Positions 24,302 through 56,603 are shown, numbered from the stretch's first letter. The stretch: 64,000 nt of DNA from Escherichia coli (GCF_024223415.1 NZ_CP100500.1), one strand, 5' to 3'. A program made the numbers and translations. The notes: generated by a model not told the origin, from the letters alone.

Positions 24302-27300
24302 TTATTTCCGTACCCGATGTCGGTGCAGCCACATCAGCTTATACGCCGCCGGGATAATAAACAGCGACAGCAAAGGCGCGGTGATCATGCCGCCAATCAT
24401 CGGCGCGGCAATCCGGCTCATCACCTCTGACCCTGCTCCTGTTCCCCACAGAATCGGCAGCAGACCAGCGATAATCACCGCCACCGTCATCGCTTTCGGG
24501 CGCACGCGCAGTACCGCGCCGTGATACAACGCCTCATCCAGCTTCTGCTCGCTGAATGTTTGCGGATTATTCAACGACGGCTCGGCCTCTATGGCGTGAC
24601 GTAAATACATCAGCATCACCACGCCAAATTCGGCGGCGACCCCGGCGAGGGCGATAAAGCCAGTGCCCGTCGCCACAGAAAGATGAAAGCCCATCCACCA
24701 CAGCAACCAGATGCCGCCCACCAGCGCAAACGGTACGCTGCTGATAATCAGCAACGCTTCGCCCACCCGACGGAATACCAGATACAACAGCACGAAGATG
24801 ATCATCAGTGTCATCGGCACCATGAGTTTCAGCTTATGGTTGGCGCGCTCCAGTAGCTCGAACTGCCCGGAGAATGCCACGCTGGTGCCCGGTTTTAACT
24901 GCACTTTTTCAGCTATCGCTTTTTGCAAATCGTGAACCACCGACACCATGTCACGATCGCGGGCATCGATATAAATCCAGCTCGTCGGGCGCGCATTCTC
25001 GGTTTTCAGCATTGACGGTCCGGTAGAGACTTTAACGTCGGCCACGTCTGCCAGGGTGATTTGCTGCTTCATCGGCGTCAGGATCGGCAACTGGCGCAGT
25101 GCCTGCGGACTATCGCGCCAGCTTTGCGGATAACGCAGATTAATTGGATAACGGGCAATCCCTTCCACCGTTTCGCCAACCATCGCCCCGCCCACCGCAG
25201 AAGTCACAAACAACTGCACATCCGCCACCGTCATACCGTAACGTGCGGCTTTTTCACGGTTAATCTCAACGTTGATATAGCGCCCACCTTCCAGCCGCTC
25301 GGCAAGCGCAGAAGCTACGCCTGGCACCGTTCGTGCCACCTCTTCAATTTGCTCCGCCATCGCGTCGATATCCGCCAGCACAGTGCCGGAAACTTTTATG
25401 CCGATAGGGCTTTTAATGCCGGTTGAGAGCATATCGATACGGTTACGAATTGGCGGCACCCACAGATTCGCCAGCCCCGGCAGACGCACGGTGTTATCCA
25501 GTTCCTCAATGATTTTGTCCATTGTCATGCCTGGCCGCCACTGATCCTGTGGCTTAAGCTGGATGGTCGTTTCTACCATCTCCAGCGGAGCAGAATCGGT
25601 GGCGGTTTCCGCTTTTCCGGTTTTGCCAAATACCCGCGCCACTTCAGGTACGCTCATAATCAGCTTGTCGGTTTTTTGCAGCATACTCGCCGCCTCCGCT
25701 GCGGAAATCCCCGGCAGCGTCGATGGCATATACAACAAGTCGCCTTCATTGATCTGTGGTAAAAATTCCCCGCCAACTTTATTGAGCGGCCAGATAACCG
25801 TCAGCACCGAAAGCGCCGCCACCAGCAGCGTGGTTTTCGGCCAGTGCAGTACTTTCAGCAACAGCGGATGATAAACACGAATCAAAAAGCGATTGAGCGG
25901 GTTACTTCTTTCTGGCGGAATTTTGCCACGGATCCAGTAACCCATCAGGATAGGGATCACTACGATCGCCAGCAGAGCCGCACCCGCCATCGCATACGTT
26001 TTGGTGAACGCCAGCGGGCCAAACAGACGCCCTTCCTGCCCTTCCAGGGTGAAGATCGGGATAAACGACAGCGTGATAATCAGCAGACTGATAAACAGCG
26101 CCGGCCCCACTTCAACAGATGCATCGGTAATCACCTGCCAGCGCGTTTTATTATCCAGCGTGGCGTCAGGATGCTGGTGCTGCCACTCTTCCAGCCGTTT
26201 ATGTGCATTCTCGATCATGACGATAGCGGCATCGACCATCGCCCCGACGGCAATCGCAATGCCACCCAACGACATAATATTGGCATTCAGCCCCTGGAAG
26301 TGCATGACAATAAAAGCAATACACAACCCCAGCGGCAACGAAATAATCGCCACCAGCGCCGAGCGCACATGCCAGAGAAACAGCGCACAGACTACCGCCA
26401 CCACAATAAACTCTTCCAGCAACTTGCCGCTGAGGTTGTCGATGGCCCGGTCAATGAGCTGGCTGCGATCGTATGTTGTAACTATCTCCACGCCTTCCGG
26501 CAGACTACTTTTCAGCGTTTCCAGTTTGTCCTTCACGGCGGCGATCACTTCTCGGGCGTTTTTGCCGGAACGCAGGATCACCACCCCGCCCGCAACTTCG
26601 CCTTCGCCGTTCAGTTCGGCAATGCCCCGGCGCATCTCCGGGCCAACCTGGACCTTCGCAACATCACGCAGATAAACGGGCACGCCATTTTCACTGGCTT
26701 TTAAAACGATGTGATTAAAGTCGTCGAGCGTTTGCAGATAGCCGCTGGCGCGCACCATATATTCCGCTTCCGCCAGTTCGATCGACGAACCGCCCGCTTC
26801 CTGGTTTGAAGCATCCAGCGCATTTTTCACTTCGCCGAGACTGATGCCATACTGCGCCAGGCGCTGAGGATCGATAACCACCTGATACTCTTTCACCACA
26901 CCGCCCACCGACGCCACTTCCGCAACGTCAGGGATGGTTTTTAGCTCATATTTGAGAAACCAGTCCTGCAATGAGCGTAAATCGGCAAGATCGTGCTTAC
27001 CGCTGCGATCCACCAGTGCATATTCATAGATCCAGCCAACACCCGTGGCATCTGGCCCCAGCTCGGCGCTGACTCCTGCAGGCAGCTTACCCTGTACCTG
27101 GTTGAGGTACTCCAACACCCGCGAACGCGCCCAGTACGGATCGGTGCCATCTTCGAAAATGACATACACATAAGAGTCGCCAAACTGCGAGAAACCACGC
27201 ACAGTCTTCGCGCCAGGCACCGACAACATGGTGGTGGTTAGCGGATAAGTCACCTGATTTTCAACGATTTGCGGTGCCTGGCCGGGATAGCTGGTTTTAA

Positions 27301-31274: not shown

Positions 31275-32712
31275 GCCATTTCAGCGCCCGTTTTCGCTGG
31301 CAACCCGCCTGACCTTTTTTATCAGCCTGGCCACCATCGCGGCGTTTTTCGCCTTTGCATGGATCATGATCCACTCAGTAAAAGTGCATTTTGCCGAGCA
31401 GGATATTAATGATTTAAAAGAGATTAGCGCCACCCTTGAACGGGTACTAAATCACCCTGACGAAACGCAAGCCCGACGCTTAATGACGCTGGAAGATATC
31501 GTCAGTGGTTATTCCAACGTGTTGATTTCCCTGGCAGATAGCCACGGCAAAACGGTGTATCACTCCCCCGGTGCGCCGGATATCCGCGAGTTTGCACGTG
31601 ATGCCATACCCGATAAAGACGCGCGGGGTGGCGAGGTGTATCTCCTTTCCGGCCCGACGATGATGATGCCAGGCCACGGTCACGGGCATATGGAACACAG
31701 CAACTGGCGGATGATTAACTTGCCGGTTGGCCCGTTGGTGGACGGCAAACCGATTTATACGCTCTACATCGCGCTTTCGATCGATTTTCATCTTCATTAC
31801 ATAAATGATTTGATGAATAAACTTATTATGACCGCATCGGTAATCAGCATCCTGATCGTCTTTATCGTACTGTTGGCGGTACATAAAGGTCACGCGCCGA
31901 TCCGCAGCGTCAGCCGTCAAATCCAGAATATCACCTCGAAAGATCTCGACGTCCGCCTTGACCCGCAGACCGTGCCCATTGAGCTGGAACAGCTGGTACT
32001 GTCGTTCAACCATATGATCGAGCGTATTGAGGATGTCTTTACCCGCCAGTCCAATTTCTCAGCGGACATCGCCCACGAAATTCGCACACCAATTACGAAT
32101 CTCATAACGCAAACCGAAATCGCCCTCAGCCAGTCGCGCAGCCAGAAGGAGCTGGAAGATGTGCTCTACTCTAATCTCGAAGAGCTGACGCGAATGGCGA
32201 AAATGGTCAGCGATATGCTGTTTCTCGCTCAGGCCGATAACAACCAGCTAATCCCCGAAAAGAAAATGCTCAACCTGGCGGATGAAATCGGCAAAGTGTT
32301 CGATTTTTTCGAGGCGTTAGCGGAAGATCGCGGCGTGGAGTTGCAGTTTGTTGGCGACGAGTGCCAGGTTGCGGGCGATCCGCTGATGCTGCGTCGGGCA
32401 TTAAGCAACCTGCTTTCTAATGCCCTGCGTTATACGCCACCCGGAGAGGCTATTGTAGTGCGCTGCCAGACGGTCGAGCATCAGGTGCAAGTTATCGTCG
32501 AAAACCCCGGTACTCCCATTGCGCCCGAGCACTTACCGCGATTGTTTGACCGTTTCTACCGCGTTGACCCTTCCCGCCAGCGAAAAGGCGAAGGTAGCGG
32601 CATTGGGCTGGCGATAGTGAAATCGATTGTTGTCGCACATAAAGGCACGGTTGCAGTAACGTCAGATGCGCGGGGGACAAGGTTTGTGATTGTGTTGCCG
32701 GAGAGGGGGTGA
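31264..32712 (+). CDS. cusS: copper-sensing histidine kinase CusS
   Basis: Start at [10 protein letters not shown] overlapping the cusR stop; two TM segments, H-box [10 protein letters not shown] and ATPase domain. Confidence 0.9.
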
Positions 32713-33305
32713 TTATTAAGTTCAAATTCAGGGCGAGGGTTTACGGCGTTTTTCGCTAAATTTCCATCATTATAAACAAGCCACCTATCATATAAAGCAA
32801 TGAATAATTAAATCGCGATTAATCATCATTAATTTTTATATTATTCACCCAATCCATTTATAAAGTGAATTTGATAAATTCCTAATTTAAAATATCCACT
32901 ATTGAGCCAGTATTTAACAACGTTAAGATGTGCAATGTGCAGATCATGTTATCAGGGTGGAGCGGTAGCATATATTTTTTAAGCAATCATTCATTTTAAT
33001 GATGTTAATTGGGTTATTTAGTTGTGAATAAAAACATATTATGAATATTGGTTTAACTTTGCGTTTTTGTTACTCGCTGTGATGTGCGCACCTGTCCTGA
33101 ATAACGTCAGGAAACAATAAGTTGAGCTTGTGATTATTTTTTTGACTGAACAGACACCCGTTTCTGTAAAGTAATATTTAAACAAAATTCTCACATAATC
33201 ATAGCATTTTTTGTTCCTTCCCTAATAACGTCTTAAGTCGTCCCGCTTATCTCATTATCCGCAGTTGTACGGTGCGGATTATTATTCATTTTACCGGAGG
33301 TTGCT

Positions 33306-35207
33306 ATGTCAACCGGATTACGTTTCACACTGGAAGTGGACGGCCTGCCACCGGACGCTTTTGCGGTGGTTTCCTTTCATCTCACCCAGTCACTCTCTTC
33401 GCTCTTTTCCCTCGATCTCTCCCTGGTCAGCCAGCAGTTTCTCTCCCTTGAATTCCAGCAGATCCTCGACAAAATGGCCTACCTGACGATATGGCAGGGC
33501 GATGACGTACAGCGCCGGGTGAAAGGTGTGGTGACCTGGTTTGAACTGGGGGAGAACGACAAAAACCAGATGCTGTACAGCATGAAGGTATGCCCGCCGC
33601 TGTGGCGTGCCGGTCTGCGCCAGAACTTCCGTATCTTCCAGAACGAGGACATCAAAAGCATCCTCGGCACGATATTGCAGGAAAACGGGGTGACCGAGTG
33701 GAGTCCGCTGTTCAGTGAACCGCATCCTTCCCGTGAGTTTTGTGTCCAGTACGGTGAGACTGATTACGATTTCCTGTGCCGGATGGCGGCGGAGGAAGGC
33801 ATCTTCTTTTATGAGGAGCATGCTTACAAAAGTACCGACCAGAGCCTGGTGCTGTGCGACACGGTCCGCCATCTGCCCGAATCTTTTGAAATCCCATGGA
33901 ACCCGAACACCCGTACCGAGGTGAGCACCCTCTGCATCAGCCAGTTTCGCTACAGCGCACAAATCCGCCCTTCTTCCGTGGTGACCAAAGACTACACCTT
34001 TAAACGCCCCGGCTGGGCAGGACGTTTTGATCAGGAAGGCCAGCACCAGGATTACCAGCGCACGCAGTATGAGGTGTATGACTACCCCGGACGTTTCAAG
34101 GGCGCCCACGGGCAGAACTTTGCCCGCTGGCAGATGGAGGGCTGGCGAAACAATGCAGAAACCGCGCGGGGAATGAGTCGCTCGCCGGAGATATGGCCGG
34201 GACGGCGAATTGTGCTGACGGGGCATCCGCAGGCGAACCTGAACCGGGAATGGCAGGTGGTGGCAAGTGAACTGCACGGCGAGCAGCCGCAGGCGGTGCC
34301 GGGAAGGCGGGGAGCAGGGACGGCGCTGGAGAACCATTTTGCGGTGATCCCGGCAGACCGGACATGGCGACCCCAGCCGCGGCTAAAACCGCTGGTGGAC
34401 GGTCCGCAGAGCGCCGTCGTGACGGGGCCGGAGGGTGAGGAAATCTTCTGTGATGAACATGGCCGAGTGCGGGTGAAATTCAACTGGGACCGTTATAACC
34501 CGGCAGACCAGGACAGCTCGTGCTGGATCCGTGTGGCACAGGCGTGGGCAGGCACCGGTTTTGGCAACCTGGCGATACCGCGTGTGGGTCAGGAGGTGAT
34601 AGTGGACTTCCTCAACGGCGATCCGGACCAGCCGATCATTATGGGGCGCACCTACCACCAGGAAAACCGCACCCCCGGCAGCCTGCCGGGGACGAAGACG
34701 CAGATGACCATCCGTTCCAAAACGTATATGGGCAGCGGGTTTAATGAGCTGAAGTTTGACGATGCGACAGGGAAAGAACAGGTCTACATCCACGCGCAGA
34801 AGGACATGGATACCGAGGTACTCAACGATCGTACCACCACCGTAAAACACGATCATCGCGAAACCGTAAAAAATGACCAGACGGTCACGATACAGGAAGG
34901 TAATCGCCTTCTTATGGTGGAAAAAGGCGACAAGATCACAGGAGTACGAAAAGGTTCTTTATCTGAGAATGTCTTTCAGGACAGAGGCACGATTGCCGGT
35001 TCGGTGCATGTTGACGCTGTAGACAATGGTGGCGAAGGCAACGGTATACAGGCTTATACGGCAATTAAGGAAATTATGCTGGCCGTGGAGGAAAGCAAAA
35101 TTGCGCTGACGCCGGATGGCATTCAGCTACAGGTCGGGGAATCAACGGTAATCAGGCTGTCGAAGGATGGCATCACCATCGTGGGCGGCTCTGTTTTTAT
35201 CAACTGA
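33306..35207 (+). CDS. vgrG: type VI secretion spike protein VgrG (gp27/gp5-like, no C-terminal extension)
   Basis: 633-aa ORF with strong RBS GGAGG; canonical VgrG sequence features; preceded by about 600 bp of AT-rich DNA. Confidence 0.9.
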   Translation: MSTGLRFTLEVDGLPPDAFAVVSFHLTQSLSSLFSLDLSLVSQQFLSLEFQQILDKMAYLTIWQGDDVQRRVKGVVTWFELGENDKNQMLYSMKVCPPLWRAGLRQNFRIFQNEDIKSILGTILQENGVTEWSPLFSEPHPSREFCVQYGETDYDFLCRMAAEEGIFFYEEHAYKSTDQSLVLCDTVRHLPESFEIPWNPNTRTEVSTLCISQFRYSAQIRPSSVVTKDYTFKRPGWAGRFDQEGQHQDYQRTQYEVYDYPGRFKGAHGQNFARWQMEGWRNNAETARGMSRSPEIWPGRRIVLTGHPQANLNREWQVVASELHGEQPQAVPGRRGAGTALENHFAVIPADRTWRPQPRLKPLVDGPQSAVVTGPEGEEIFCDEHGRVRVKFNWDRYNPADQDSSCWIRVAQAWAGTGFGNLAIPRVGQEVIVDFLNGDPDQPIIMGRTYHQENRTPGSLPGTKTQMTIRSKTYMGSGFNELKFDDATGKEQVYIHAQKDMDTEVLNDRTTTVKHDHRETVKNDQTVTIQEGNRLLMVEKGDKITGVRKGSLSENVFQDRGTIAGSVHVDAVDNGGEGNGIQAYTAIKEIMLAVEESKIALTPDGIQLQVGESTVIRLSKDGITIVGGSVFIN

Positions 35208-35234
35208 TTCACTCAGATTATCAGGGAGTATTTT

Positions 35235-35696
35235 ATGCAGTTCACTTTTAATGAAGGCCACATTCAACTGCCGTCTCAATGGCAGGATCAGTCAATGCAG
35301 GTCCTGGTGTCCACAGATAACAGTGGCATCAACCTGGTCATTACCCGCGAAGCCGTTCCACAGGGAACCCTGACACCAGAGCTGTACCAGGAAACGCTGG
35401 CGCTGTACCAGGGCAAACTTGATGGGTACACCGCACATGCCTGCCGGGAAATCACTCTGGCAGAGGCCCCGGCCTGGCTGCTGGATTATTCCTGGAACGG
35501 TCCGGAAGATGAAGGGAATCAGGGGCGGATTAGCCAGATAGCCGTATTCCAGCGGCGTGGAGATACGCTGCTGACCTTCACTTTCAGCACCTCCTTATCC
35601 CTGAAGAACAGTCAAAAGACGATGCTGCTGGAGGTGATAAAGAGCTTCACCCCGTTGCCACCGGAGAATGATATCCAAAAGGACCAGCCGCGCTGA
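35235..35696 (+). CDS. DUF1795-family (Eag-like) effector chaperone/adaptor
   Basis: 153-aa ORF directly between vgrG and a prePAAR Rhs gene, the usual position and size for Eag/DUF1795 chaperones; family assignment is by context and sequence recollection. Confidence 0.7.
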   Translation: MQFTFNEGHIQLPSQWQDQSMQVLVSTDNSGINLVITREAVPQGTLTPELYQETLALYQGKLDGYTAHACREITLAEAPAWLLDYSWNGPEDEGNQGRISQIAVFQRRGDTLLTFTFSTSLSLKNSQKTMLLEVIKSFTPLPPENDIQKDQPR

Positions 35697-35715
35697 CATA
35701 AACGAGGGATAACAC

Positions 35716-38700
35716 ATGAGTGAAGGACCAGGCGGGCCACAGGGAGCGACCGCAGGCGGTACGCTGGCAATGCGAATGCTTTCACAGCAGGCGATGGTCG
35801 CCAGCCAGATGAAACGGGCAGCCAACAACAAAGCCATTGCACAGATGTTGGCATCAAAAAAGTCTGGCCCCCCCGCCGCCAGGCTGGGCGATGAAATTCA
35901 GCACAAGAGTTTTTTGGGGGCGCTGGCAGGGGCCGTGCTGGGGGCGATAGTGACCATCGCAGAAGGTTGCCTGATTATGGCCGCCTGTGCCACCGGCCCT
36001 TATGCGCTGGTTCTGGTGCCTGCGCTGATGTATGCCAGCTATAAGGCGAGTGATTATGTGGAGGAGAAACAGAACCAGCTTGAATCATGGATAAACAGCT
36101 TTTGTGACACGGACGGCGCCATCAATACCGGTTCTGAAAACGTAAAAATTAACGGAAAGCCCGCTGCCAGGGCCGCCGTCACCCTTCCCTCTCCTCCCCC
36201 GCCTGAAGCAATACCCGAAGCCTCACAGGGGGAGCATTCATGGGGTGACATGGCCCTTGACCTGCTTGAATCGGCAGCGGAAAAAGCAGCGCCACTGGCT
36301 AAATCCTGGGGGAACGCTGTTATCACCCTGACGGACAGCAATGCCAGTTTTATGGATCGCGTCAGTGCAGGCGCATCGCTTCTGTTTCCCGCCGGTCCGG
36401 TATTAATGGAGTTTGCCACCATGGTGGGCGGGCGTGGCGAAATCAAAAAAGATGTGGATTTCCCGGAAGCCGGTGAGGACACGGCGCTCTGCGACAAGGA
36501 GAACAAACCACCGAGGATAGCCCAGGGCAGCAGCAACGTCTTTATCAACAATCAGCCTGCCGCGCGCAAGGGCGACAAACTGGAGTGCAGCGCGGCAATC
36601 GTGGAAGGTTCGCCGGACGTCTTTATTGGGGGTGAGCAGGTCACCTATCTGGATATCCAGCCGGAGTTCCCGCCATGGCAGAGAATGATCCTGGGAGGAA
36701 TAACGATAGCCAGCTATCTTCTGCCGCCAGCAGGACTGCTGGGAAAACTGGGGAATCTGGCGAAACTGGGCAAACTGGGAAACCTGCTGGGGAAAAGCGG
36801 GAAGCTGCTGGGCGCAAAACTCGGCGCGTTGCTGGGGAAAACAGGTAAGTCGTTAAAAAGTATTGCCAATAAAGTCATCAGATGGGTAACAGATCCTGTC
36901 GATCCGGTAACCGGCGCGTACTGCGACGAACGTACCGACTTCACCCTGGGCCAGACCCTCCCCCTCTCCTTCACCCGTTTCCACAGTTCTGTACTGCCAC
37001 TGCATGGCCTGACGGGCGTGGGCTGGAGCGACTCCTGGAGCGAATACGCCTGGGTGCGTGAACAGGGAAACCGGGTGGATATCATCAGCCTGGGAGCCAC
37101 GCTGAACTTCGCCTTCGACGGTGAAAGTGATACGGCGGTTAACCCGTATCACGCCCAGTACATTCTGCGCCGCTGCGACGATTACCTGGAGCTGTTCGAC
37201 AGGAATGCACTGAGCAGCCGCTTCTTTTATGACGCCTTTCCGGGAATGCGTCTGCGCCACCCGGTGACTGACGATACCAGCGATGACCGCCTGGCACACA
37301 GCCCCGCAGACCGGATGTACATGCTGGGCGGGATGAGCGACACCGCCAGCAACCGCATCACGTTTGAGCGCGACAGCCAGTACCGGATCACGGGTGTCAG
37401 TCACACCGACGGGATCCGGCTTAAACTGACGTACCACGCCAGCGGCTACCTGAAAGCCATTCACCGCACGGATAACGGCATACAGACGCTGGCGACCTAC
37501 GAACAGGATGCGCGGGGGCGGCTGACAGAAGCGGATGCGCGGCTGGACTACCACCTGTTTTATGAGTACGACGCTGCGGACCGGATCATCCGCTGGTCCG
37601 ATAACGACCAGACGTGGAGCCGTTTCACCTACGATGAACAGGGCCGGTGCGTGACCGTCACCGGGGCGGAGGGCTATTACAACGCCACGCTGGACTATGG
37701 TGACGGCTGCACCACCGTGACGGACGGCAAGGGCATTCACCGTTATTACTATGATCCTGACGGCAATATTCTGCGGGAAGAAGCGCCGGACGGCAGCACC
37801 ACCACGTATGAATGGGATGAATTCCATCACCTGCTGGCCCGCCACTCCCCTGCCAGGCGGGTGGAGAAATTTGAATACAACGCCGCACAGGGTCAGTTAA
37901 GCCGTTACACGGCGGCAGACGGCGCGGAGTGGCAGTACTGCTATGATGAGCGCGGCCTGCTCAGCAACATCACCGACCCTGCCGGGCAGACGTGGACGCA
38001 GCAGTGTGATGAACGCGGCCTGCCGGTAAGTCTGGTGTCGCCACAGGGCGAAGAGACCCGGCTGGCGTACACGCCGCAGGGGCTGCTGTCGGGGATATTC
38101 CGCCAGGATGAACGGCGTCTGGGCATAGAGTACGACCACCACAACCGGCCGGAAACACTCACCGACGTGATGGGCCGTGAACACCACACCGAATACAGCG
38201 GTCACGACCTGCCGGTGAAGATGCGCGGCCCCGGCGGTCAGTCAGTGCGGTTGCAGTGGCAGCAGCACCATAAACTGAGCGGCCTTGAGCGGGCAGGAAC
38301 CGGCGCAGAAGGATTCCGCTATGACCGCCACGGCAACCTGCTGGCGTACACGGACGGTAACGGCGTTGTCTGGACAATGGAATACGGCCCGTTCGATTTG
38401 CCGGTGGCGCGAACGGACGGTGAAGGCCACCGCTGGCAGTACCGCTACGATAAAGACACGCTGCAGCTCACAGAAGTCATTAACCCGCAGGGTGAGTCTT
38501 ATCTTTATATTCTGGACAACTGTGGCCGGGTGACGGAAGAACGTGACTGGGGCGGCGTGGTCTGGCGTTACCGTTATGACGCTGATGGCCTGTGTACCGC
38601 CAGGGTCAACGGCCTGGAGGAAACCATCCTCTACGGCCGGGACGCCGCAGGCCGCCTGGCAGAAGTCATCACGCCGGAAGGTAAAACGCAGTATGCGTAT

Positions 38701-40536
38701 GACAAATCCGGCAGGCTGACGGGTATCTTCAGCCCGGACGGCACATCACAGCGCACCGGCTACGACGAACGCGGGCGGGTGAATGTCACCACTCAGGGCC
38801 GACGGGCCATTGAATACCACTACCCCGACGAACATACCGTCATCCGCTGTATCCTGCCACCGGAAGATGAACGCGACAGACACCCCGATGAATCCCTGCT
38901 GAAAACCACGTACCGCTACAACGCAGCCGGAGAACTGACGGAGGTTATCCTGCCGGGGAATGAGACGCTGACGTTCAGCCGTGATGAGGCAGGACGTGAA
39001 GTGTTCCGGCACAGTAACCGGGGTTTTGCCTGTGAGCAGGGCTGGAATGCAGCCGGCCAGCTTACCAGCCAGCGCGCCGGACTTTTCCCGGAGGAAGCCA
39101 CGTGGGGCGGGCTGGTTCCGTCACTGGTGCGGGAGTACCGTTACGACAGCGCGGGTAATGTGTCAGGCGTCACCAGCCGGGAAGATTACGGACGGGAAAC
39201 ACGGCGGGAATACCGGCTGGACCGGAACGGCCAAGTCACGGCGGTGACAGCCTCAGGCACCGGGCTGGGCTATGGCGAAGGCGATGAGTCCTATGGCTAT
39301 GACAGCTGTGGCTACCTGAAGGCGCAGTCTGCGGGCAGGCACCGGATAAGTGAAGAGACTGACCAGTATGCCGGAGGCCACCGGCTGAAACAGGCCGGAA
39401 ACACGCAGTATGACTATGACGCCGCAGGCCGGATGGTCAGCCGGACAAAACACCGTGACGGCTACCGCCCGGAAACAGAGCGGTTCCGGTGGGACAGCCG
39501 GGACCAGCTGACCGGGTATTGCAGCGCACAGGGTGAGCTGTGGGAATACCGCCACGACGCCAGCGGCAGACGAACAGAGAAACGCTGCGACCGGAAGAAA
39601 ATCCGCTTCACGTATCTGTGGGACGGCGACAGTATTGCGGAAATCCGGGAATACCGCGATGATGAACTGTACAGCGTACGGCACCTGGTGTTTAACGGCT
39701 TTGAGCTGATAAGCCAGCAGTTCAGCCGGGTACGGCAGCCGCACCCGTCCGTGGCTCCGCAGTGGGTGACGCGGACGAATCATGCGGTGAGCGACCTGAC
39801 GGGCCGGCCGCTGATGCTCTTTAACAGTGAAGGTAAAACCGTCTGGCAGCCGGGACAGACCAGCCTGTGGGGGCTGGCACTCAGCCTGCCCGCAGACACA
39901 GACTACCCGGACCCGCGCGGGGAACTGGACCCGGAAGCCGACCCCGGCCTGCTGTATGCGGGACAGTGGCAGGATGCGGAATCCGGGCTGTGCTATAACC
40001 GGTTCCGGTATTACGATCCGGAAACCGGAATGTACCTGGTGAGTGATCCGCTGGGGTTGCAGGGAGGGGAGCAGACTTACCGGTATGTGCCTAATCCTTG
40101 TGGGTATGTTGATCCCTCTGGGTTGGCAATGACTTCGAAAATAGTCAATAAACTACCTTCTGCAAAAGATCTTGCTACAAAAAGGGCCAGTGAGTTATTA
40201 GCAAAGGCAACATCTAATACCCAGCGAAGTAAATTACCAAGGGCAGTTTCAGCTGTTGTTGATAAGAGAACTGGCAAAATATATTATGGAGAAAGTGGCT
40301 GGCCTCACCCAACAGAAATACATCCTACATTACAAAATAATATGCCATCAGCCAGTAAGGAGCGATGGGCAATCGAGAACTGTGCGGAATTTAAAGCTGT
40401 AAATGAAGCTTTGAAGGCAAATGCGAAAATTAGTGATCTTGAAGTTCATACAGTATTGGTAAAAACAGGCGAAGCTTTTCCAATGTGTAAGAATTGTCAA
40501 ATTTCAATATTTGGCGCTGTTGTTACAAGCGGGTGA
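35716..40536 (+). CDS. rhs: Rhs polymorphic toxin with N-terminal prePAAR/TM/PAAR region, YD-repeat shell and a variable C-terminal tip resembling a deaminase-fold toxin
   Basis: 1606-aa ORF; prePAAR motif AARLGDEIQH followed by hydrophobic helices; YD repeats; core ends with DPLGL...DPSGLA (about 40045-40119); after that GC content drops and the tip carries C-A-E (40381..40389) and P-M-C-K-N-C (40480..40497) about 34 residues apart, the zinc-ligand pattern of cytidine/adenosine deaminases. Confidence 0.9.
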   Translation: MSEGPGGPQGATAGGTLAMRMLSQQAMVASQMKRAANNKAIAQMLASKKSGPPAARLGDEIQHKSFLGALAGAVLGAIVTIAEGCLIMAACATGPYALVLVPALMYASYKASDYVEEKQNQLESWINSFCDTDGAINTGSENVKINGKPAARAAVTLPSPPPPEAIPEASQGEHSWGDMALDLLESAAEKAAPLAKSWGNAVITLTDSNASFMDRVSAGASLLFPAGPVLMEFATMVGGRGEIKKDVDFPEAGEDTALCDKENKPPRIAQGSSNVFINNQPAARKGDKLECSAAIVEGSPDVFIGGEQVTYLDIQPEFPPWQRMILGGITIASYLLPPAGLLGKLGNLAKLGKLGNLLGKSGKLLGAKLGALLGKTGKSLKSIANKVIRWVTDPVDPVTGAYCDERTDFTLGQTLPLSFTRFHSSVLPLHGLTGVGWSDSWSEYAWVREQGNRVDIISLGATLNFAFDGESDTAVNPYHAQYILRRCDDYLELFDRNALSSRFFYDAFPGMRLRHPVTDDTSDDRLAHSPADRMYMLGGMSDTASNRITFERDSQYRITGVSHTDGIRLKLTYHASGYLKAIHRTDNGIQTLATYEQDARGRLTEADARLDYHLFYEYDAADRIIRWSDNDQTWSRFTYDEQGRCVTVTGAEGYYNATLDYGDGCTTVTDGKGIHRYYYDPDGNILREEAPDGSTTTYEWDEFHHLLARHSPARRVEKFEYNAAQGQLSRYTAADGAEWQYCYDERGLLSNITDPAGQTWTQQCDERGLPVSLVSPQGEETRLAYTPQGLLSGIFRQDERRLGIEYDHHNRPETLTDVMGREHHTEYSGHDLPVKMRGPGGQSVRLQWQQHHKLSGLERAGTGAEGFRYDRHGNLLAYTDGNGVVWTMEYGPFDLPVARTDGEGHRWQYRYDKDTLQLTEVINPQGESYLYILDNCGRVTEERDWGGVVWRYRYDADGLCTARVNGLEETILYGRDAAGRLAEVITPEGKTQYAYDKSGRLTGIFSPDGTSQRTGYDERGRVNVTTQGRRAIEYHYPDEHTVIRCILPPEDERDRHPDESLLKTTYRYNAAGELTEVILPGNETLTFSRDEAGREVFRHSNRGFACEQGWNAAGQLTSQRAGLFPEEATWGGLVPSLVREYRYDSAGNVSGVTSREDYGRETRREYRLDRNGQVTAVTASGTGLGYGEGDESYGYDSCGYLKAQSAGRHRISEETDQYAGGHRLKQAGNTQYDYDAAGRMVSRTKHRDGYRPETERFRWDSRDQLTGYCSAQGELWEYRHDASGRRTEKRCDRKKIRFTYLWDGDSIAEIREYRDDELYSVRHLVFNGFELISQQFSRVRQPHPSVAPQWVTRTNHAVSDLTGRPLMLFNSEGKTVWQPGQTSLWGLALSLPADTDYPDPRGELDPEADPGLLYAGQWQDAESGLCYNRFRYYDPETGMYLVSDPLGLQGGEQTYRYVPNPCGYVDPSGLAMTSKIVNKLPSAKDLATKRASELLAKATSNTQRSKLPRAVSAVVDKRTGKIYYGESGWPHPTEIHPTLQNNMPSASKERWAIENCAEFKAVNEALKANAKISDLEVHTVLVKTGEAFPMCKNCQISIFGAVVTSG

Positions 40537-40540
40537 TTAT

Positions 40541-40978
40541 ATGTGTGAATTAATTAATGAAGCATCAAAATATGGGAAAGTCAATGTAAGAAAGATGGAC
40601 ATTGATTTGTGTTGTAAAAAAATAGAGGAAGAAGGGTATTCTGTTTTCGTTGCGTTCTATGATTTTATAAAAAAATATGGCGGTTTATATGGCTTTCATT
40701 CAGCTTACAAAGACACCACTATAAGTGAGGCTTTTTTTATAGATCCAGAAAGGGCCTCTAATCGCATTTTTATAGAAAGAGTCAATGATTATATTGAGAG
40801 AGCTGGTTACAATATGATTCCTGTTGGCGAGTGCAGTAATGGTCATATCACATTATTATATGGGGAAAATAATGTGATATATGGCGGCTTGGATGATTAT
40901 CTTTGGAAGTATGGGGATAATTTATCTTCATCAATTGATATATTGATTAATGGTAAGGAGGCAGTTGAAATTCCGTAA
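40541..40978 (+). CDS. putative cognate immunity protein for the Rhs tip
   Basis: AT-rich ORF starting 5 bp after the rhs stop (ATG at 40541; an upstream TTG at 40511 would overlap rhs); position and composition typical of Rhs immunity genes; family unknown. Confidence 0.6.
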   Translation: MCELINEASKYGKVNVRKMDIDLCCKKIEEEGYSVFVAFYDFIKKYGGLYGFHSAYKDTTISEAFFIDPERASNRIFIERVNDYIERAGYNMIPVGECSNGHITLLYGENNVIYGGLDDYLWKYGDNLSSSIDILINGKEAVEIP

Positions 40979-40984
40979 GGCCAA

Positions 40985-42909
40985 CTGCCAGGGCCAACGG
41001 CCTGGAGGAAACCATCCTCAACAGCCGGGACGCCGCAGGCCGCCTGGCAGAAGTCATCTCGCCGGAAGGCAAAACGCAGTATGCGTATGACAAATCCGGC
41101 AGGCTGACGGGTATCTTCAGCCCGGACGGTACATCACAGCGCACCGGCTATGATGAACGCGGGCGGGTGAATGTCACCACTCAGGGCCGACGGGCCATTG
41201 AATACCACTACCCCGATGAACACACCGTCATCCGCTGTATCCTGCCACCGGAAGATGAACGCGACAGACACCCCGATGAATCCCTGCTGAAAACCACATA
41301 CCGCTACAACACCGCCGGAGAACTGACGGAGGTCATTCTGCCGGGGGATGAGACGCTGACGTTCAGCCGTGATGAGGCGGGACGTGAAGTGTTCCGGCAC
41401 AGTAACCGGGGTTTTGCCTGTGAGCAGGGCTGGAATGCAGCCAGCCAGCTTGTCACCCAGCGCGCCGGATTTTTCCCGGAGGAAACCACATGGGGCGGGC
41501 TGCTCCCCTCACTGGTACGGGAGTACCGTTACGACAGCGCGGGCAATGTGTCGGCTGTCACCAGCCGGGAAGATTACGGACGGGAAACACGGCGGGAATA
41601 CCGGCTGGACCGGAACGGCCATGTCACGGCGGTGACAGCCTCAGGCACCGGGCTGGGCTATGGCGAAGGCGATGAGTCCTATGGCTATGACAGCTGCGGC
41701 TACCTGAAGGCGCAGTCTGCGGGCAGGCACCGGATAAGTGAAGAGACTGACCAGTATGCCGGAGGCCACCGGCTGAAACAGGCCGGAAACACGCAGTATG
41801 ACTATGACGCCGCAGGCCGGATGGTCAGCCGGACAAAACACCGTGACGGCTACCGCCCGGAAACAGAGCGGTTCCGGTGGGACAGCCGGGACCAGCTGAC
41901 CGGGTATTGCAGCGCACAGGGTGAGCAGTGGGAATACCGCCACGACGCCAGCGGCAGACGGACGGAAAAACGCTGTGACCGGAAGAAAATCCGTTTTACG
42001 TACCTGTGGGACGGCGACAGTATTGCGGAAATCCGGGAATACCGCGATGATGAACTGTACAGCGTACGGCACCAGGTGTTTAACGGCTTTGAGCTGATAA
42101 GCCAGCAGTTCAGCCGGGTACGGCAGCCGCACCCGTCCGTGGCCCCGCAGTGGGTGACGCGGACGAATCACGCGGTGAGCGACCCGACGGGCCGCCCGCT
42201 GATGCTCTTTAACAGTGAAGGCAAGACGGTCTGGCGGCCGGGGCAGACCAGCCTGTGGGGGCTGGCACTCAGCCTGCCCGCAGACACCGACGACCCGGAC
42301 CCGCGCGGGGAACTGGACGCGGAAGCCGACCCCGGCCTGCTGTATGCAGGACAGTGGCGGGATGGGGAATCCGGGCTGTGCTATAACCGGTTCAGGTACT
42401 ACGAGCCGGAAACCGGAATGTACCTGGTGAGTGATCCACTGGGGTTGCTGGGGGGTGAGCAGACTTACCGGTATGTGCCTAATCCACTGGGTTGGATTGA
42501 CCAGTATGGACTTGCTGGTTGCCCCAGAGCTCTGGCAAGGGCAATGAAACGGGCTAACAGAAACCTAGCTAAGAGTGCCGGATACATGAATCGAGCTTGG
42601 TATAAATTCAAAGGTTCTGCCGCCCATCATATTGTTGCTTGGGATGACCCCCGTGCTTTAGGCGCAAGAAAAATTCTGGAAAAATATGGTATACACATTG
42701 ATTCCGCAGAAAATGGAATATTTTTGAAACATGTAGATCCAAACTCTCTTCAGCCAGGATCTTATCATCGTGTTATTCATACGAACAAATATTATGCTGA
42801 TGTTGAGGCACGACTCGCAGACGCAGCTAAGGCTAATGGGAAACAAGGTGTTCTTGATGAGTTAGATGCTATCAGGGATGACCTGCTTTTTAATAGACTA
42901 ATTTATTAA
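40985..42909 (+). pseudogene. orphan rhs fragment (about 1.5 kb of core plus a distinct tip of the AHH nuclease family), no N-terminal region
   Basis: Nucleotides about 40988-42500 are near-identical to the main rhs at about 38599-40115; after its own DPLGL motif the tip differs and contains GSAAHHIVAWDD (AHH at 42622..42630), then ENGIFL and SYHRVIH, matching the HNH-like AHH family; longest internal ORF is 41167..42909. Confidence 0.7.
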
Positions 42910-42922
42910 TAAGGGCATAGTA

Positions 42923-43456
42923 ATGAATGTTTATTTAATTCGGCATGATGTGGACAACTTCAAGTTTTACTTGCAAGACGAGAGTGACTTTCTTTCAGTT
43001 GCTGCTTTTGATTTTTGTGGAGAGTCTCTATTTAATGGATGGAAACCATACAAAATAGAGCTATTTAAAGGAAAAACTAAAGCTGAGAAATCATTAAACG
43101 GGGATTTTAATTCATCATGTTTTAGTCCAGGATTATTATACGTCGAACATTCTCTCGCAGATGTATTATCTCGTCAGGCAAATGATATTGAGTTATTAAA
43201 AGTAATCACCAGTGATGATCGTGATTTTTATTATGCAAACGTGGTAGGGAAAATACCAGCCTTACATTATAACAACAGACAAGAGCTACAAATTATGAGT
43301 AGAACACAAGAATATAAATTCAATAACTCCATAAATGAAATGTTAATATTTCGTGATAAAACATTACCTTCAAACTATTTTGTTACAGATCGTTTTGTGG
43401 ATATTTTTCAGAATGATTTTCGTGGGGTAATTTTTAAAAAAGTTGGTGAGATATAA
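42923..43456 (+). CDS. putative immunity protein for the orphan AHH-nuclease tip
   Basis: 177-aa AT-rich ORF immediately downstream of the orphan tip; family unknown. Confidence 0.6.
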   Translation: MNVYLIRHDVDNFKFYLQDESDFLSVAAFDFCGESLFNGWKPYKIELFKGKTKAEKSLNGDFNSSCFSPGLLYVEHSLADVLSRQANDIELLKVITSDDRDFYYANVVGKIPALHYNNRQELQIMSRTQEYKFNNSINEMLIFRDKTLPSNYFVTDRFVDIFQNDFRGVIFKKVGEI

Positions 43457-43482
43457 CTTAATGCATTGAACATCTAACCCGT

Positions 43483-44015
43483 ACCGCTATGACCGCCACG
43501 GTAACCTGCTGGCGTACACGGACGGTAACGGCGTTGTCTGGACGATGGAATACGGCCCGTTCGATTTGCCGGTCGCGCGAACGGACGGTGAAGGCCACCG
43601 CTGGTGGTACCGCTACGATAAAGACACGCTGCAACTGACAGAAGTCATCAACCCGCAGGGTGAGTCATATCTTTATGTTCTGGATAACTGTGGCCGGGTG
43701 ACGGAAGAGCGTGACTGGGGCGGCGTGGTCTGGCGTTACCGCTATGACGCCGATGGCCTCTGTACCGCCAGGGTCAACGGACTGGAGGAAACCATCCTCT
43801 ACAGCCGGGACGCTGCAGGGCGCCTGGCAGAAGTCATCACGCCGGAAGGGAAAACGCAGTATGCGTATGACAAATCCGGCAGGCTGACGGGTATCTTCAG
43901 CCCGGACGGCATATCACAGCGCACCGGCTATGACGAACGCGGGCGGGTGAATGTCACCACTCAGGGCCGACGGGCAGGGAAAGATCATCAGAAGTTCACT
44001 TTTTGTACTAAATAA
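43483..44015 (+). pseudogene. second rhs core fragment (about 0.5 kb) truncated at the H-repeat insertion
   Basis: Near-identical to the main rhs at about 38316-38808; ORF 43545..44015 ends in a short unrelated tail (GKDHQKFTFCTK) where the H-repeat element begins. Confidence 0.65.
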
Positions 44016-45300
44016 TTCGCATTTTATGTTTAAAAATTGAGATATTCCTCATTATCCGAAGCTGTTTTTTATTGCTTATACATGATCAAATACTCCTTAC
44101 ATAATTAAGGAGAACAAAATGGAACTTAAAAAATTGATGGAACATATTTCTATTATCCCCGATTACAGACAAGCCTGGAAAGTGGAACATAAATTATCAG
44201 ATATTCTACTGTGGACTATTTGTGCCGTTATTTCTGGTGCAGAAGGTTGGGAAGATATAGAGGATTTTGGGGAAACACATCTCGATTTTTTGAAGCAATA
44301 TGGTGATTTTGAAAATGGTATTCCTGTTCACGATACCATTGCCAGAGTTGTATCCTGTATCAGTCCTGCAAAATTTCACGAGTGCTTTATTAACTGGATG
44401 CGTGACTGCCATTCTTCAGATGATAAAGACGTCATTGCAATTGATGGAATAACGCTCCGGCACTCTTATGATAAGAGTCGTCGCAGGGGAGCGATTCATG
44501 TCATTAGTGCGTTCTCAACAATGCACAGTCTGGTCCTCGGACAGATCAGGACGGATGAGAAATCTAATGAGATTACAGCTATTCCTGAACTTCTTAACAT
44601 GATGGATATTAAAGGAAAAATCATCACAACTGATGCGATGGGTTGCCAGAAAGATATTGCAGAAAAGATACAAAAACAGGGAGGGGATTATTTATTCGCT
44701 GTAAAGGGAAATCAGGGGCGACTAAATAAAGCCTTTGAGGAAAAATTCCCGCTGAAAGAATTAAATAATCCAGAGCATGACAGTTACGCAATCAGTGAAA
44801 AGAGTCACGGCAGAGAAGAAATCCGTCTTCATATTGTTTACGATGTCCCTGATGAACTTATTGATTTCACGTTTGAATGGAAAGGGCTGAAGAAATTATG
44901 CGTGGCAGTCTCCTTTCGGTCCATAATAGCAGAACAAAAGAAAGAGCCAAAAATGACGGTCAGATATTATATCAGTTCTGCTGATTTAACCGCAGAGAAG
45001 TTCGCCACAGCAATCCGAAACCACTGGCACGTGGAGAATAAGCTGCACTGGCGTCTGGACGTGGTAATGAATGAAGACGACTGCAAAATAAGAAGAGGAA
45101 ATGCAGCAGAATTATTTTCAGGGATACGGCACATTGCTATTAATATTTTGACGAATGATAAGGTATTCAAGGCAGGGTTAAGACGTAAGATGCGAAAAGC
45201 AGCCATGGACAGAAACTATCTGGCGTCAGTCCTTGCGGGGAGCGGGCTTTCGTAATCTTGCCCTGCCTGCTCACCTCCAGGCACTTCCACTACATCATGA
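44016..45300 (+). mobile_element. H-repeat (H-rpt) insertion element, boundaries approximate
   Basis: Encloses the H-rpt transposase ORF; left edge set where rhs homology stops (about 43976-44016); right edge not defined by recognisable terminal repeats. Confidence 0.45.
44119..45255 (+). CDS. H-repeat-associated protein (ISAs1-family transposase, YhhI/YdcC-like)
   Basis: 378-aa ORF closely resembling the H-rpt proteins found next to K-12 Rhs elements; sits at the distal end of the Rhs island. Confidence 0.85.
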
Positions 45301-45520
45301 CCTGATCGGTGCCACCACTCCTCTTCACTATGACGTTAACCTCCCCTCCTTGACACCACGCTTTTGTCTACATTCTACGCAAACGGCAACTTTTATAACC
45401 AGTGTAAAAATAACGTGCCGCAATAGTCATACCTATTAATGGTAAAAAGCTGTCACAATTCATAAAAAACCTTAATATACGCCACCCTAAACATAACCAG
45501 CGTTAATGTAAGGTTTTTGT

Positions 45521-47758
45521 GTGGACTGGCTTCTTGATGTTTTTGCTACCTGGCTCTACGGCTTAAAAGTAATCGCGATAACGTTAGCGGTCATCATGTT
45601 CATCAGCGGGCTGGACGATTTTTTTATTGATGTCGTCTACTGGGTACGCCGCATTAAACGCAAGTTGAGTGTTTATCGCCGCTACCCGCGAATGAGTTAC
45701 CGCGAACTGTATAAACCAGATGAAAAACCGTTAGCGATTATGGTTCCGGCGTGGAATGAAACGGGCGTCATCGGCAATATGGCCGAGCTGGCGGCGACCA
45801 CGCTCGACTACGAAAACTATCATATCTTTGTTGGCACCTACCCCAACGACCCGGACACTCAGCGTGATGTTGACGAAGTGTGCGCTCGCTTCCCGAATGT
45901 GCATAAGGTAGTCTGCGCGCGTCCTGGCCCCACCAGCAAAGCCGACTGTCTGAACAACGTGCTGGACGCCATCACCCAGTTTGAGCGTAGCGCCAATTTC
46001 GCATTTGCTGGTTTTATTCTGCATGACGCCGAAGATGTGATTTCACCGATGGAGTTGCGTCTGTTCAACTATCTGGTCGAGCGTAAAGATCTGATTCAGA
46101 TCCCGGTATACCCATTCGAACGCGAATGGACGCACTTCACCAGCATGACTTACATTGATGAGTTTTCAGAACTGCATGGCAAAGATGTTCCGGTGCGTGA
46201 AGCCCTCGCCGGACAAGTACCCAGCGCAGGCGTCGGCACCTGTTTCAGCCGCCGCGCCGTGACCGCTCTGTTAGCTGATGGTGACGGTATTGCTTTCGAC
46301 GTGCAAAGTCTTACTGAAGATTACGACATTGGCTTCCGCCTGAAAGAAAAAGGTATGACGGAAATTTTTGTCCGTTTTCCGGTGGTGGATGAAGCCAAAG
46401 AACGCGAGCAGCGTAAATTTTTACAGCACGCACGGACGTCAAACATGATCTGCGTGCGCGAATATTTCCCCGATACCTTTTCGACTGCGGTTCGACAAAA
46501 ATCCCGCTGGATCATCGGCATTGTTTTCCAGGGCTTTAAAACCCATAAATGGACCTCCAGCCTGACGCTGAACTACTTTCTCTGGCGCGACCGCAAAGGG
46601 GCAATCAGTAACTTTGTCAGCTTCCTCGCGATGCTGGTGATGATCCAGCTTTTGCTGTTGCTGGCGTATGAAAGTTTGTGGCCCGATGCCTGGCATTTCC
46701 TTTCTATTTTTAGCGGCAGCGCATGGTTAATGACCCTGCTGTGGCTAAACTTTGGCTTGATGGTTAACCGCATCGTGCAGCGGGTGATTTTCGTCACTGG
46801 CTACTACGGCCTCACGCAGGGGCTACTATCTGTCCTGCGTCTTTTCTGGGGCAACCTGATTAACTTCATGGCCAACTGGCGCGCGTTAAAACAGGTACTT
46901 CAACACGGCGATCCACGTCGCGTCGCGTGGGATAAAACAACGCATGACTTCCCCAGCGTCACTGGCGATACCCGCTCGTTGCGCCCGTTAGGTCAAATTC
47001 TGCTGGAAAATCAGGTCATCACTGAAGAACAGCTCGATACAGCACTGCGTAATCGCGTCGAAGGTCTACGCCTGGGCGGTTCAATGCTGATGCAGGGGCT
47101 GATTAGCGCCGAGCAGCTGGCACAGGCGCTGGCAGAGCAAAACGGCGTGGCGTGGGAATCCATCGATGCCTGGCAGATCCCGTCCTCGCTGATTGCCGAA
47201 ATGCCGGCCTCCGTGGCGCTGCATTATGCGGTACTGCCGCTGCGTCTGGAAAATGATGAGTTAATTGTCGGCAGTGAAGATGGTATTGACCCGGTTTCGC
47301 TGGCGGCCCTGACGCGTAAAGTCGGACGCAAAGTGCGTTACGTCATTGTTCTGCGGGGACAAATTGTCACGGGGTTACGTCACTGGTATGCACGCCGACG
47401 CGGTCACGATCCGCGGGCAATGTTGTACAATGCGGTTCAGCATCAGTGGCTCACGGAACAGCAGGCCGGTGAAATCTGGCGGCAATATGTGCCGCATCAG
47501 TTCCTGTTCGCCGAAATACTGACCACGCTCGGTCATATTAATCGTTCAGCAATTAACGTGTTGTTATTGCGCCATGAACGCAGTTCTCTGCCGCTCGGCA
47601 AGTTTTTGGTCACCGAAGGCGTTATCAGCCAGGAAACGTTGGATCGCGTCCTGACAATTCAACGCGAATTACAAGTTTCGATGCAATCACTATTACTCAA
47701 AGCAGGTTTAAACACAGAACAGGTTGCGCAACTGGAGTCCGAAAATGAAGGAGAATAA
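45521..47758 (+). CDS. nfrB: bacteriophage N4 adsorption protein B (inner-membrane glycosyltransferase-like) NfrB
   Basis: 745-aa ORF with GTG start; N-terminal TM and glycosyltransferase family 2-like region; followed by nfrA. Confidence 0.88.
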   Translation: MDWLLDVFATWLYGLKVIAITLAVIMFISGLDDFFIDVVYWVRRIKRKLSVYRRYPRMSYRELYKPDEKPLAIMVPAWNETGVIGNMAELAATTLDYENYHIFVGTYPNDPDTQRDVDEVCARFPNVHKVVCARPGPTSKADCLNNVLDAITQFERSANFAFAGFILHDAEDVISPMELRLFNYLVERKDLIQIPVYPFEREWTHFTSMTYIDEFSELHGKDVPVREALAGQVPSAGVGTCFSRRAVTALLADGDGIAFDVQSLTEDYDIGFRLKEKGMTEIFVRFPVVDEAKEREQRKFLQHARTSNMICVREYFPDTFSTAVRQKSRWIIGIVFQGFKTHKWTSSLTLNYFLWRDRKGAISNFVSFLAMLVMIQLLLLLAYESLWPDAWHFLSIFSGSAWLMTLLWLNFGLMVNRIVQRVIFVTGYYGLTQGLLSVLRLFWGNLINFMANWRALKQVLQHGDPRRVAWDKTTHDFPSVTGDTRSLRPLGQILLENQVITEEQLDTALRNRVEGLRLGGSMLMQGLISAEQLAQALAEQNGVAWESIDAWQIPSSLIAEMPASVALHYAVLPLRLENDELIVGSEDGIDPVSLAALTRKVGRKVRYVIVLRGQIVTGLRHWYARRRGHDPRAMLYNAVQHQWLTEQQAGEIWRQYVPHQFLFAEILTTLGHINRSAINVLLLRHERSSLPLGKFLVTEGVISQETLDRVLTIQRELQVSMQSLLLKAGLNTEQVAQLESENEGE

Positions 47759-54019: not shown

Positions 54020-54268
54020 GAACGCCAACTAAAATTTCCCCGAGGTGAAAATCGCCCCGGGGAATAACTAGCCATTTCAATGTAACAATTAACCCTTAAA
54101 ATAAACCCAGAAGGTTATTAACTAAATCACATAAAAAACCATCAATTATAGTATGTATAAAATAGGCGACAGCAACCCAATTACAAATTAATGGTTCCAG
54201 AATATCACATCAAAAAAAACGCTGTATAATATTATAATTAACATGTAGACAACTTGTAATAAACATTA

Positions 54269-55824: not shown

Positions 55825-55880
55825 TTAACCCCTTGTAATTCATTGCCATAATTGATTTAATTCACAAATAAAACTATAAC

Positions 55881-56549: not shown

Positions 56550-56603
56550 CATCCAACCGCAGCACGTTCTTGCTTAAGACGTGCTGCGGCATAATCCCAA
56601 TGA

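Follow-up and report, generated by a model that had tools for sequence, protein, structure and literature searches.

Why does a 64,000-nucleotide stretch of Escherichia coli DNA (hereafter the window, numbered from its first letter) carry more than 12 kb between cusS and nfrB, and what might this DNA do for the cell? The two genes are neighbors in K-12, as an earlier note on the sequence stated, and alignment places them 149 bp apart in MG1655. In the window, the open reading frame (ORF) listing ends cusS at 32712, with its start at 31252 or 31264, and gives nfrB as 45521 to 47758. The DNA between them, put at about 12.8 kb in the note, amounts to ~12.68 kb of extra DNA by alignment. We consider it likely that this island is an accessory vgrG-eagR-rhs effector module of the E. 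coli type VI secretion system 2 (T6SS-2), acting through a mechanism drawn from homology to Photorhabdus Rhs1/Tre23. The insert as a whole and the genes that carry this interpretation are the following.

32693 to 45370, strand not assigned: the whole inserted island, ~12.68 kb, its limits set by comparing the window with K-12 and with the corresponding loci of two Escherichia outgroups
33306 to 35207, plus strand: vgrG, encoding a T6SS-2-type spike of 633 residues (TIGR03361, E = 1e-189, 631 bits against a cut-off of 186)
35235 to 35696, plus strand: eagR, encoding a DUF1795/DcrB-family chaperone of 153 residues (Pfam DcrB, E = 1.5e-25, 127 of 127 model positions)
35716 to 40536, plus strand: intact rhs gene for a class I prePAAR-PAAR-Rhs effector of 1606 residues (prePAAR_I, PAAR, DUF6531, YD repeats, and Rhs-associated core)
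40126 to 40533, plus strand: toxin tip of the main Rhs protein, residues 1471 to 1606, beginning after L1470, YwqJ-like with a predicted cytidine-deaminase fold
40541 to 40978, plus strand: predicted cognate immunity gene of the SUKH-3 family, 145 residues (Pfam SUKH-3, E = 7e-11; RefSeq annotation)

These coordinates and profile matches, together with those of the remaining features given below, agree with the earlier description of the interval as an AT-rich leader, vgrG, a DUF1795 chaperone, a 1606-residue PAAR-Rhs protein, and an H-rpt element.

Class I prePAAR effectors are defined by an AARxxDxxxH motif, an N-terminal transmembrane domain (TMD) region, a PAAR domain, an Rhs cage, and an adjacent DUF1795 gene. 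All of these features are present in the island, and it shows no difference in kind from the class I prePAAR effectors and Eag chaperones of Ahmad et al. (2020; eLife 9:e62816, PMC7773334). The prePAAR motif of the main Rhs protein, AARLGDEIQH, occupies residues 54 to 63 (Pfam prePAAR_I, E = 1.4e-4) and runs into a hydrophobic TMD stretch at residues 63 to 105 with a Kyte-Doolittle peak of 2.13. The PAAR domain is split between residues ~132 to 155 and 254 to 310 (PAAR_motif, E = 0.017 at 132 to 153 and 8.9e-10 at 267 to 310); relative to Photorhabdus Rhs1/Tre23, the two parts are separated by an insert of ~98 residues (156 to 253; window 36181 to 36474). A postPAAR hydrophobic helix lies at residues 324 to 343. 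The shell is made of YD repeats, recognized by TIGR01643 in 11 stretches, and the Rhs-associated core is present (TIGR03696, E = 1.6e-19). At the end of the core, DPLGL at residue 1444 and DPSGL at residue 1466 form a DPLGL-(17)-DPSGL arrangement that fits DPxGL-(17/18)-DPxGL. Moreover, residues 254 to 1476 are homologous to Photorhabdus Rhs1/Tre23 (7pq5) with E = 7e-255. At residues 394 to 401 (window 36895 to 36918), the sequence PVDPVTGA ends in alanine where the published PVxxxxGE motif ends in glutamate, and Tre23 aligns DPIDVTTGQ at this position. The rhs frame is open through 1606 codons with no stop, and the vgrG and eagR frames are likewise open.

The eagR gene sits between vgrG and the prePAAR effector gene, and its product matches the structures of EagT6 (6xrf) and PA0094 (1tu1) at a phmmer E value of 5e-6. 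By the example of homologs described in PMC8636562, EagR would be an Eag effector chaperone that binds and stabilizes the TMDs of the effector. A PADLOC search gave no defense-system match for VgrG, the Eag protein, or either of the two immunity proteins of the island.

VgrG contains Phage_GPD (E = 7e-75), Phage_base_V (E = 1e-14), and Gp5_trimer_C (E = 3e-21) domains, corresponding to a gp27-like hub, a gp5 OB-fold, and a beta-helix. Its core comprises residues 1 to 529, and the final ~100 residues are locus specific. We used as our comparison the closest complete genome, that of E. coli KV7 (pig feces, Denmark), which is 99.84% identical over window positions 14400 to 54022 with 60 mismatches. 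Residues 1 to 529 of the island VgrG share 93% identity with the VgrG encoded in the aspV cluster of KV7, and the two proteins are unrelated beyond residue 529. Against the Sci-1 (T6SS-1) VgrG the identity falls to 24%, and against the aai (T6SS-3) VgrG of enteroaggregative E. coli 042 it is 32%, in an alignment that covers only part of the island protein. Judged by these comparisons, the island spike is of the T6SS-2 type and not of the T6SS-1 type, and T6SS-dependent secretion is predicted.

Because the window differs from every complete RefSeq E. coli genome, our whole-genome statements use KV7 and its relatives as proxies. Nineteen of the 60 mismatches to KV7 are bunched in cusA (24770 to 26087), which has the look of a recombination patch. 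Window positions 54023 to 55594 are unrelated to KV7, with an AraC-family regulator at 54269 to 55018 here and an alpha/beta hydrolase in KV7, and the lambdoid prophage tail genes at 55595 to 63320 are only ~95% identical to their KV7 counterparts.

No genes for TssA to TssM, Hcp, or ClpV were found in the 64-kb window, either among the RefSeq genes annotated for the nearly identical stretch of KV7 (window 1 to 54000) or in NCBIfam scans of ORFs of at least 110 residues in the divergent right end, which bears out the earlier note on this point. The whole-genome search for tss genes that the note had proposed, made on the KV7 proxy, located a T6SS core cluster at aspV, flanked by yafV/ivy and aspV-dnaQ and separated from the island by ~420 kb. 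This cluster holds hcp, tssB, tssC, tssE, tssF, tssG, tagH, tssJ, tssK, tssL, tssH, vasI, tssA, tssM, a VasL-domain gene, a second hcp, vgrG, and rhs, a gene order that published descriptions name T6SS-2 (PMC10711316, PMC7216683). A chimeric query joining a KV7-specific anchor to Sci-1 tssC and aai tssC was run at megablast sensitivity; it matched KV7 once, at the anchor, and therefore KV7 has no T6SS-1 or T6SS-3 tssC detectable at that sensitivity. The vgrG and rhs frames, whose integrity the note had put in question, are annotated as intact in KV7. In KV7, then, the core genes lie elsewhere, and the island of the source strain would likewise be an auxiliary (orphan) T6SS effector module. The note's proposal of a module dependent on a T6SS encoded elsewhere is upheld by the aspV cluster, the 93% VgrG match, and the co-occurrence of eagR-rhs with tssG described below.

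The tssG gene of the KV7 T6SS-2 (record positions ~3,923,250 to 3,923,560) carries a 23-bp frameshifting deletion 87 bp 5' of the stop, which removes about the last 36 of 360 TssG residues. Since SCU-316, O78 strain 3, GPEC1446, and NCTC10444 are 100% identical across it, the deletion is a genuine allele. NCTC9112 has the island with the same tip and an intact tssG. In addition, the gene annotated as "VasL domain-containing protein" in the KV7 cluster is flagged as frameshifted.

The toxin tip of the main Rhs protein matches the Pfam YwqJ-deaminase family (PF14431) at E = 2.7e-6, as do 13 of 27 members of its own family at E ≤ 1e-3. The zinc signature C/H-A-E ... P-C-x-x-C is present in the tip as NCAEF and MCKNC. 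E88 and C121 do not vary among 27 relatives, and conservation of C86 and C124 is at least 90%. An AlphaFold2 model of the tip has a predicted local distance difference test (pLDDT) score of 95.2, and cytidine, dCMP, and blasticidin-S deaminases make up nearly all of the top 50 Foldseek matches in the PDB (probability up to 0.99, template modeling (TM) score ~0.5, E ≥ 0.016). No relative of the tip was found among PDB sequences by phmmer. A word-indexed homolog search returned 2 matches, and an exhaustive HMMER search was used instead; at E ≤ 1e-3 it placed the tip family in 384 protein clusters, at the C terminus of proteins of up to 4077 residues. The model and these matches suggest that the main Rhs tip is a YwqJ-like deaminase toxin with predicted deaminase activity.

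How such a module might work is suggested by Photorhabdus Rhs1/Tre23, for which the evidence comprises pull-downs, cross-linking, and cryo-electron microscopy (PMC8636562). In that system, EagR stabilizes the N-terminal TMD and postPAAR regions, the VgrG beta-helix tip is bound by prePAAR-PAAR, and the toxin is encapsulated by the YD shell, with aspartyl autoproteolysis after the second DPxGL (PMC8636562). Motifs, gene order, and a spike of the T6SS-2 type can be read directly in the island; on the Tre23 model, its products, if expressed, would act in the same way. EagR would bind and shield the hydrophobic prePAAR/TMD region of Rhs, while the prePAAR-PAAR domain would cap a trimer of the VgrG that the island itself encodes. 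The T6SS-2-type core of this VgrG would suit the Hcp tube and baseplate, and its locus-specific C terminus would suit this cargo. Once loaded, the spike would be fired into a neighboring bacterium by the T6SS-2 apparatus encoded at aspV, and autoproteolysis at DPxGL would free the encapsulated C-terminal toxin, here a putative YwqJ-like deaminase. Sibling cells would be protected by the SUKH-3 protein.

To place the island in its population, as the note had recommended, we compared occupancy of the locus across 5426 complete E. coli genomes. The cusS-leader-vgrG junction is present in 2628 genomes and the K-12-type empty junction in 2328; the whole 13.4-kb query is found at ≥80% coverage in 795, T6SS-2 tssG in 2123, and the deaminase tip with the SUKH-3 gene in only 4. 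Carrier counts were derived from a two-part query (the 5' end of eagR-rhs plus tssG) that matched 4417 places in 2789 genomes. By this derivation, ~2283 genomes carry eagR-rhs, ~1617 of them (71%) with T6SS-2 tssG and ~666 without. Genomes lacking eagR-rhs have tssG in ~16% of cases, giving an odds ratio for co-occurrence of ~12.7 that, like the truncation comparison that follows, ignores phylogeny. Within a 60-row sample, 32 of 47 island rows had both eagR-rhs and tssG, and visibly truncated islands made up 4 of 15 rows without tssG versus 1 of 32 with it (Fisher p = 0.03). Many of the island-only genomes are explained by the T6SS-2 deletions documented in multidrug-resistant (MDR) lineages (PMC10711316).

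Several observations weigh against assigning the island to a working T6SS-2, and they bear most directly on the possibility, already raised in the earlier note, that the island is a silent remnant. According to that explanation, the module cannot be delivered in this lineage because TssG is truncated or the leader is silenced by H-NS, and it is kept by inertia or for its immunity genes only. The only T6SS of KV7 and of the four other strains named above carries the 23-bp tssG deletion, with the VasL-domain gene frameshifted in KV7 and no T6SS-1 or T6SS-3 tssC there, and T6SS activity in the KV7-like lineage is uncertain because of this truncation. The leader has a guanine-plus-cytosine (GC) content of 41 to 42%, and E. 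coli T6SS-2 is reported to be repressed by H-NS in vitro (PMC5874247); the abstract of a study of enterohemorrhagic E. coli (EHEC), which names H-NS in its title, reports in vitro repression in the same direction (PMC13141884). A preprint on Shiga toxin-producing E. coli (STEC) O22:H8 says, citing unshown data, that the T6SS-2 of STEC lacks antibacterial activity. Loss of T6SS-2 by deletion in MDR E. coli (PMC10711316) and the ~29% of island carriers that lack T6SS-2 tssG point the same way. Nevertheless, the vgrG, eagR, and 4.8-kb rhs frames are all open, which speaks against a silent remnant. Moreover, just ~36 of 360 TssG residues are lost, so that any effect on firing is a supposition, and the intact tssG of NCTC9112, which bears the same tip, means that the source strain may have one too. 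In this lineage, the remnant proposal draws weight from the tssG allele and from the lack of a T6SS-1 or T6SS-3 tssC in KV7; we regard a silent island as unlikely, if the most serious of the alternatives. Four further points count against the T6SS-2 assignment or its details. KV7 is a close proxy but a different strain from the source; the co-occurrence and truncation statistics are blind to phylogeny; the N-terminal cleavage motif PVDPVTGA has a final alanine where glutamate is usual; and the deaminase assignment is built on a Pfam match of modest score and on a TM score of ~0.5.

The same STEC O22:H8 preprint assigns VgrGO1-dependent delivery to T6SS-1, which speaks for a spike and effector fired by another system of the T6SS-1/Sci-1 type as well as against T6SS-2. 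This explanation appears extremely improbable to us, because the island VgrG shares 24% identity with the Sci-1 VgrG versus 93% with the T6SS-2 VgrG, KV7 matched the chimeric query at its anchor and at neither Sci-1 nor aai tssC, and no more than 543 of the 5426 genomes have T6SS-1 or T6SS-3 tssC versus 2628 with the island junction. Given an island that is fully intact in a lineage whose only T6SS has a truncated baseplate gene, tssG, and the ~29% of carriers that have no T6SS-2 tssG at all, it is also conceivable, and in our view rather doubtful, that the island is kept by selection independent of firing by the cell's own T6SS and that, separately, the tip is a nucleic-acid deaminase of an uncharacterized kind without a solved relative. 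Under such selection, the island could serve as an immunity-gene reservoir against attack by kin or have another Rhs role. An accessory module of T6SS-2 thus remains the interpretation that we favor.

Is the island an insertion, or has K-12 lost it? Alignment to K-12 and to the outgroups puts the left break at ~32692, within the last cusS codons, and K-12 homology is regained at ~45371 to 45380. The insert took the place of 18 bp of the ancestral cusS-nfrB junction, CACATTACCCGCTTAATC, and changed the C terminus of CusS from ...ITLPA to ...IVLPERG (window 32690 to 32712; last five codons). The replacement codons are still similar, codon by codon, to those they replaced. An NfrB scan of species-representative genomes left 80 loci, from which two close Escherichia outgroups were obtained; the 80 did not include E. 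albertii, E. fergusonii, E. marmotae, or E. ruysiae, and the ancestral-state argument is one of two species. In both, E. whittamii and SCPM-O-B-8794, cusS lies directly 5' of nfrB, with the same breakpoints and a K-12-type cusS end, whereas the other genera with nfrB have neither cusS nor vgrG upstream of it. The SCPM-O-B-8794 sequence (NZ_JAATUR010000024.1), deposited as E. coli, shows only ~93% identity to the window in the cus and nfr genes, much as E. whittamii does, and because of this identity it probably belongs to a cryptic Escherichia clade and not to E. coli proper.

As the junction is empty in both outgroups, the empty state is ancestral and the island is an insertion. If instead the K-12 arrangement were a secondary deletion of an island ancestral to E. 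coli, the occupancy of roughly half of the genomes and the codon-level likeness of the replaced cusS end would be readily understood. We nonetheless find that history very unlikely: E. whittamii and the ~93%-identical Escherichia share the empty junction, its breakpoints, and the K-12-type cusS terminus; empty junctions 97.3 to 100% identical to K-12 are widespread in E. coli; and outside the genus, nfrB has no upstream cusS or vgrG. Judged from these alignments, the empty cusS-nfrB junction is ancestral, which the earlier note had assumed, and the later-inserted island is today present in some E. coli genomes and absent from others. A phage or plasmid origin is not called for: save about 30 places, the 5,400-odd matches are chromosomal, and a T6SS island accounts for all of the content.

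Base composition varies across the island, with GC values of 0.55 to 0.64 in the cores and 0.32 to 0.43 in the leader and tips. The features on either side of the vgrG to SUKH-3 segment are listed here.

32713 to 33305, plus strand: AT-rich leader 5' of vgrG (GC 0.41 to 0.42 against ~0.52 in the flanks)
40984 to 42909, plus strand: orphan Rhs C-terminal module, a displaced core (40984 to 42485) with an AHH nuclease tip (RefSeq partial pseudogene)
42923 to 43456, plus strand: putative immunity gene for the AHH tip, 177 residues, proposed from its position directly 3' of that tip
43484 to 43975, plus strand: second Rhs core fragment, tip-less, 492 bp, 95.5% identical to main rhs residues 867 to 1031
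44119 to 45255, plus strand: ISAs1-family (H-rpt) transposase gene (NF033564, E = 3.5e-122, 407 bits against a cut-off of 70)

The leader is presumed to be a promoter region or a target of H-NS. Its segment from 32856 to 33211 has 82 to 87% identity to sequence 5' of other vgrG loci, and an unannotated site in a laboratory strain also matches. This distribution suggests that the segment is a shared regulatory or duplicated unit that outlasts the vgrG genes beside it. A promoter scan of the leader performed no better than shuffled sequence (4 sites versus 2.8 ± 1.6 expected), no terminator was found in it, and no Rfam family matched at E ≤ 0.1 between 32000 and 46000.

Downstream of the SUKH-3 gene, the displaced core comprises 1502 bp that align without gaps to main rhs residues 961 to 1461 at 95.6% identity. 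Its tip matches Pfam AHH (PF14412), of the HNH/EndoVII nuclease superfamily, at E = 9e-15 and contains the motif ...GSAAHHIVAW.... The module has no ATG or evident start and for that reason is probably silent, barring a recombination event that joins it to the main gene. The 177-residue ORF that follows (42923 to 43456) had no match in Pfam, NCBIfam, or PADLOC. As the second core fragment ends ~140 bp 5' of the transposase ORF, it was probably cut by the ISAs1 insertion; no inverted repeats were detected between 43900 and 45520 with a seed of 8 and a minimum length of 12, settings that short or imperfect repeats could escape. The orphan toxin modules of the earlier note thus reduce to one complete module, a core with its AHH tip, and a tip-less core fragment. 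In keeping with the pattern that Jackson et al. (2009) reported from this locus, this core and AHH tip with its immunity gene, and the further fragment, appear to be former tips displaced by incoming ones, and they probably serve as a reserve for immunity and recombination.

Work by Ma et al. in 2017 (Environ Microbiol 19:345), as relayed in a review and a preprint, reportedly found that Rhs C-terminal (Rhs-CT) toxins need VgrGO1 and EagR to be delivered in E. coli; the tips cited from it are said to be MafB19-deaminase, AHH, MPTase4, REase-3, and an RNase, which differ from the island tip. Jackson et al. (2009; BMC Genomics 10:584, PMC2935791) numbered the site itself Rhs position 4 (nfrB-cusS), recognized no other clade IV rhs locus in E. 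coli, and demonstrated C-terminal tip displacement there. The island resembles position 4 in its flanking genes, its rhs clade context, and the succession of a GC-poor tip and detached core-plus-tip fragments with cores matching that of the gene upstream; it differs in its particular tips only, and that paper predates the Eag and prePAAR concepts. Similarly, the vgrG1 (z0707)-eagR (z0706)-rhsF island of EHEC EDL933 and the VgrGO1-EagR-PAAR-Rhs-CT system share the order vgrG-DUF1795-PAAR-Rhs-immunity, whereas the tip of EDL933 RhsF has no recognized toxin motif. The VgrGs of the EDL933/VgrGO1 system were reported to be at least 90% identical to T6SS-2 VgrGs, and O157:H7 and O111:H8 genomes contain the same eagR-rhs 5' segment at 97.9 to 98.0% identity.

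Comparing the island with the VgrG-EagR-Rhs1 system of Photorhabdus laumondii (Tre23; Jurenas et al. 2021, PMC8636562), both have the order prePAAR-TMD-PAAR-postPAAR-YD shell-DPxGL-toxin and an adjoining EagR gene. However, the Tre23 gene lies within a T6SS core cluster and encodes an ADP-ribosyltransferase tip, whereas the E. coli island is hundreds of kilobases from the core genes and its Rhs protein has the ~98-residue PAAR insert, a deaminase-like tip, and the PVDPVTGA motif.

Overall, the island is already known and common, as earlier publications describe the locus, the gene order, tip displacement, and the dependence on VgrG and EagR. The observation that opened this analysis is correct but ordinary, because it concerns a known T6SS cassette in about half of complete E. 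coli genomes. What is added here is the occupancy count, the evidence for a T6SS-2-type spike, which is opposite to one preprint, the finding that ~29% of carriers lack tssG, and the outgroup support for an ancestral empty junction. The deaminase-like tip, rare in E. coli yet belonging to a widespread and structurally unsolved family, is the sole part of the island that merits bench work.

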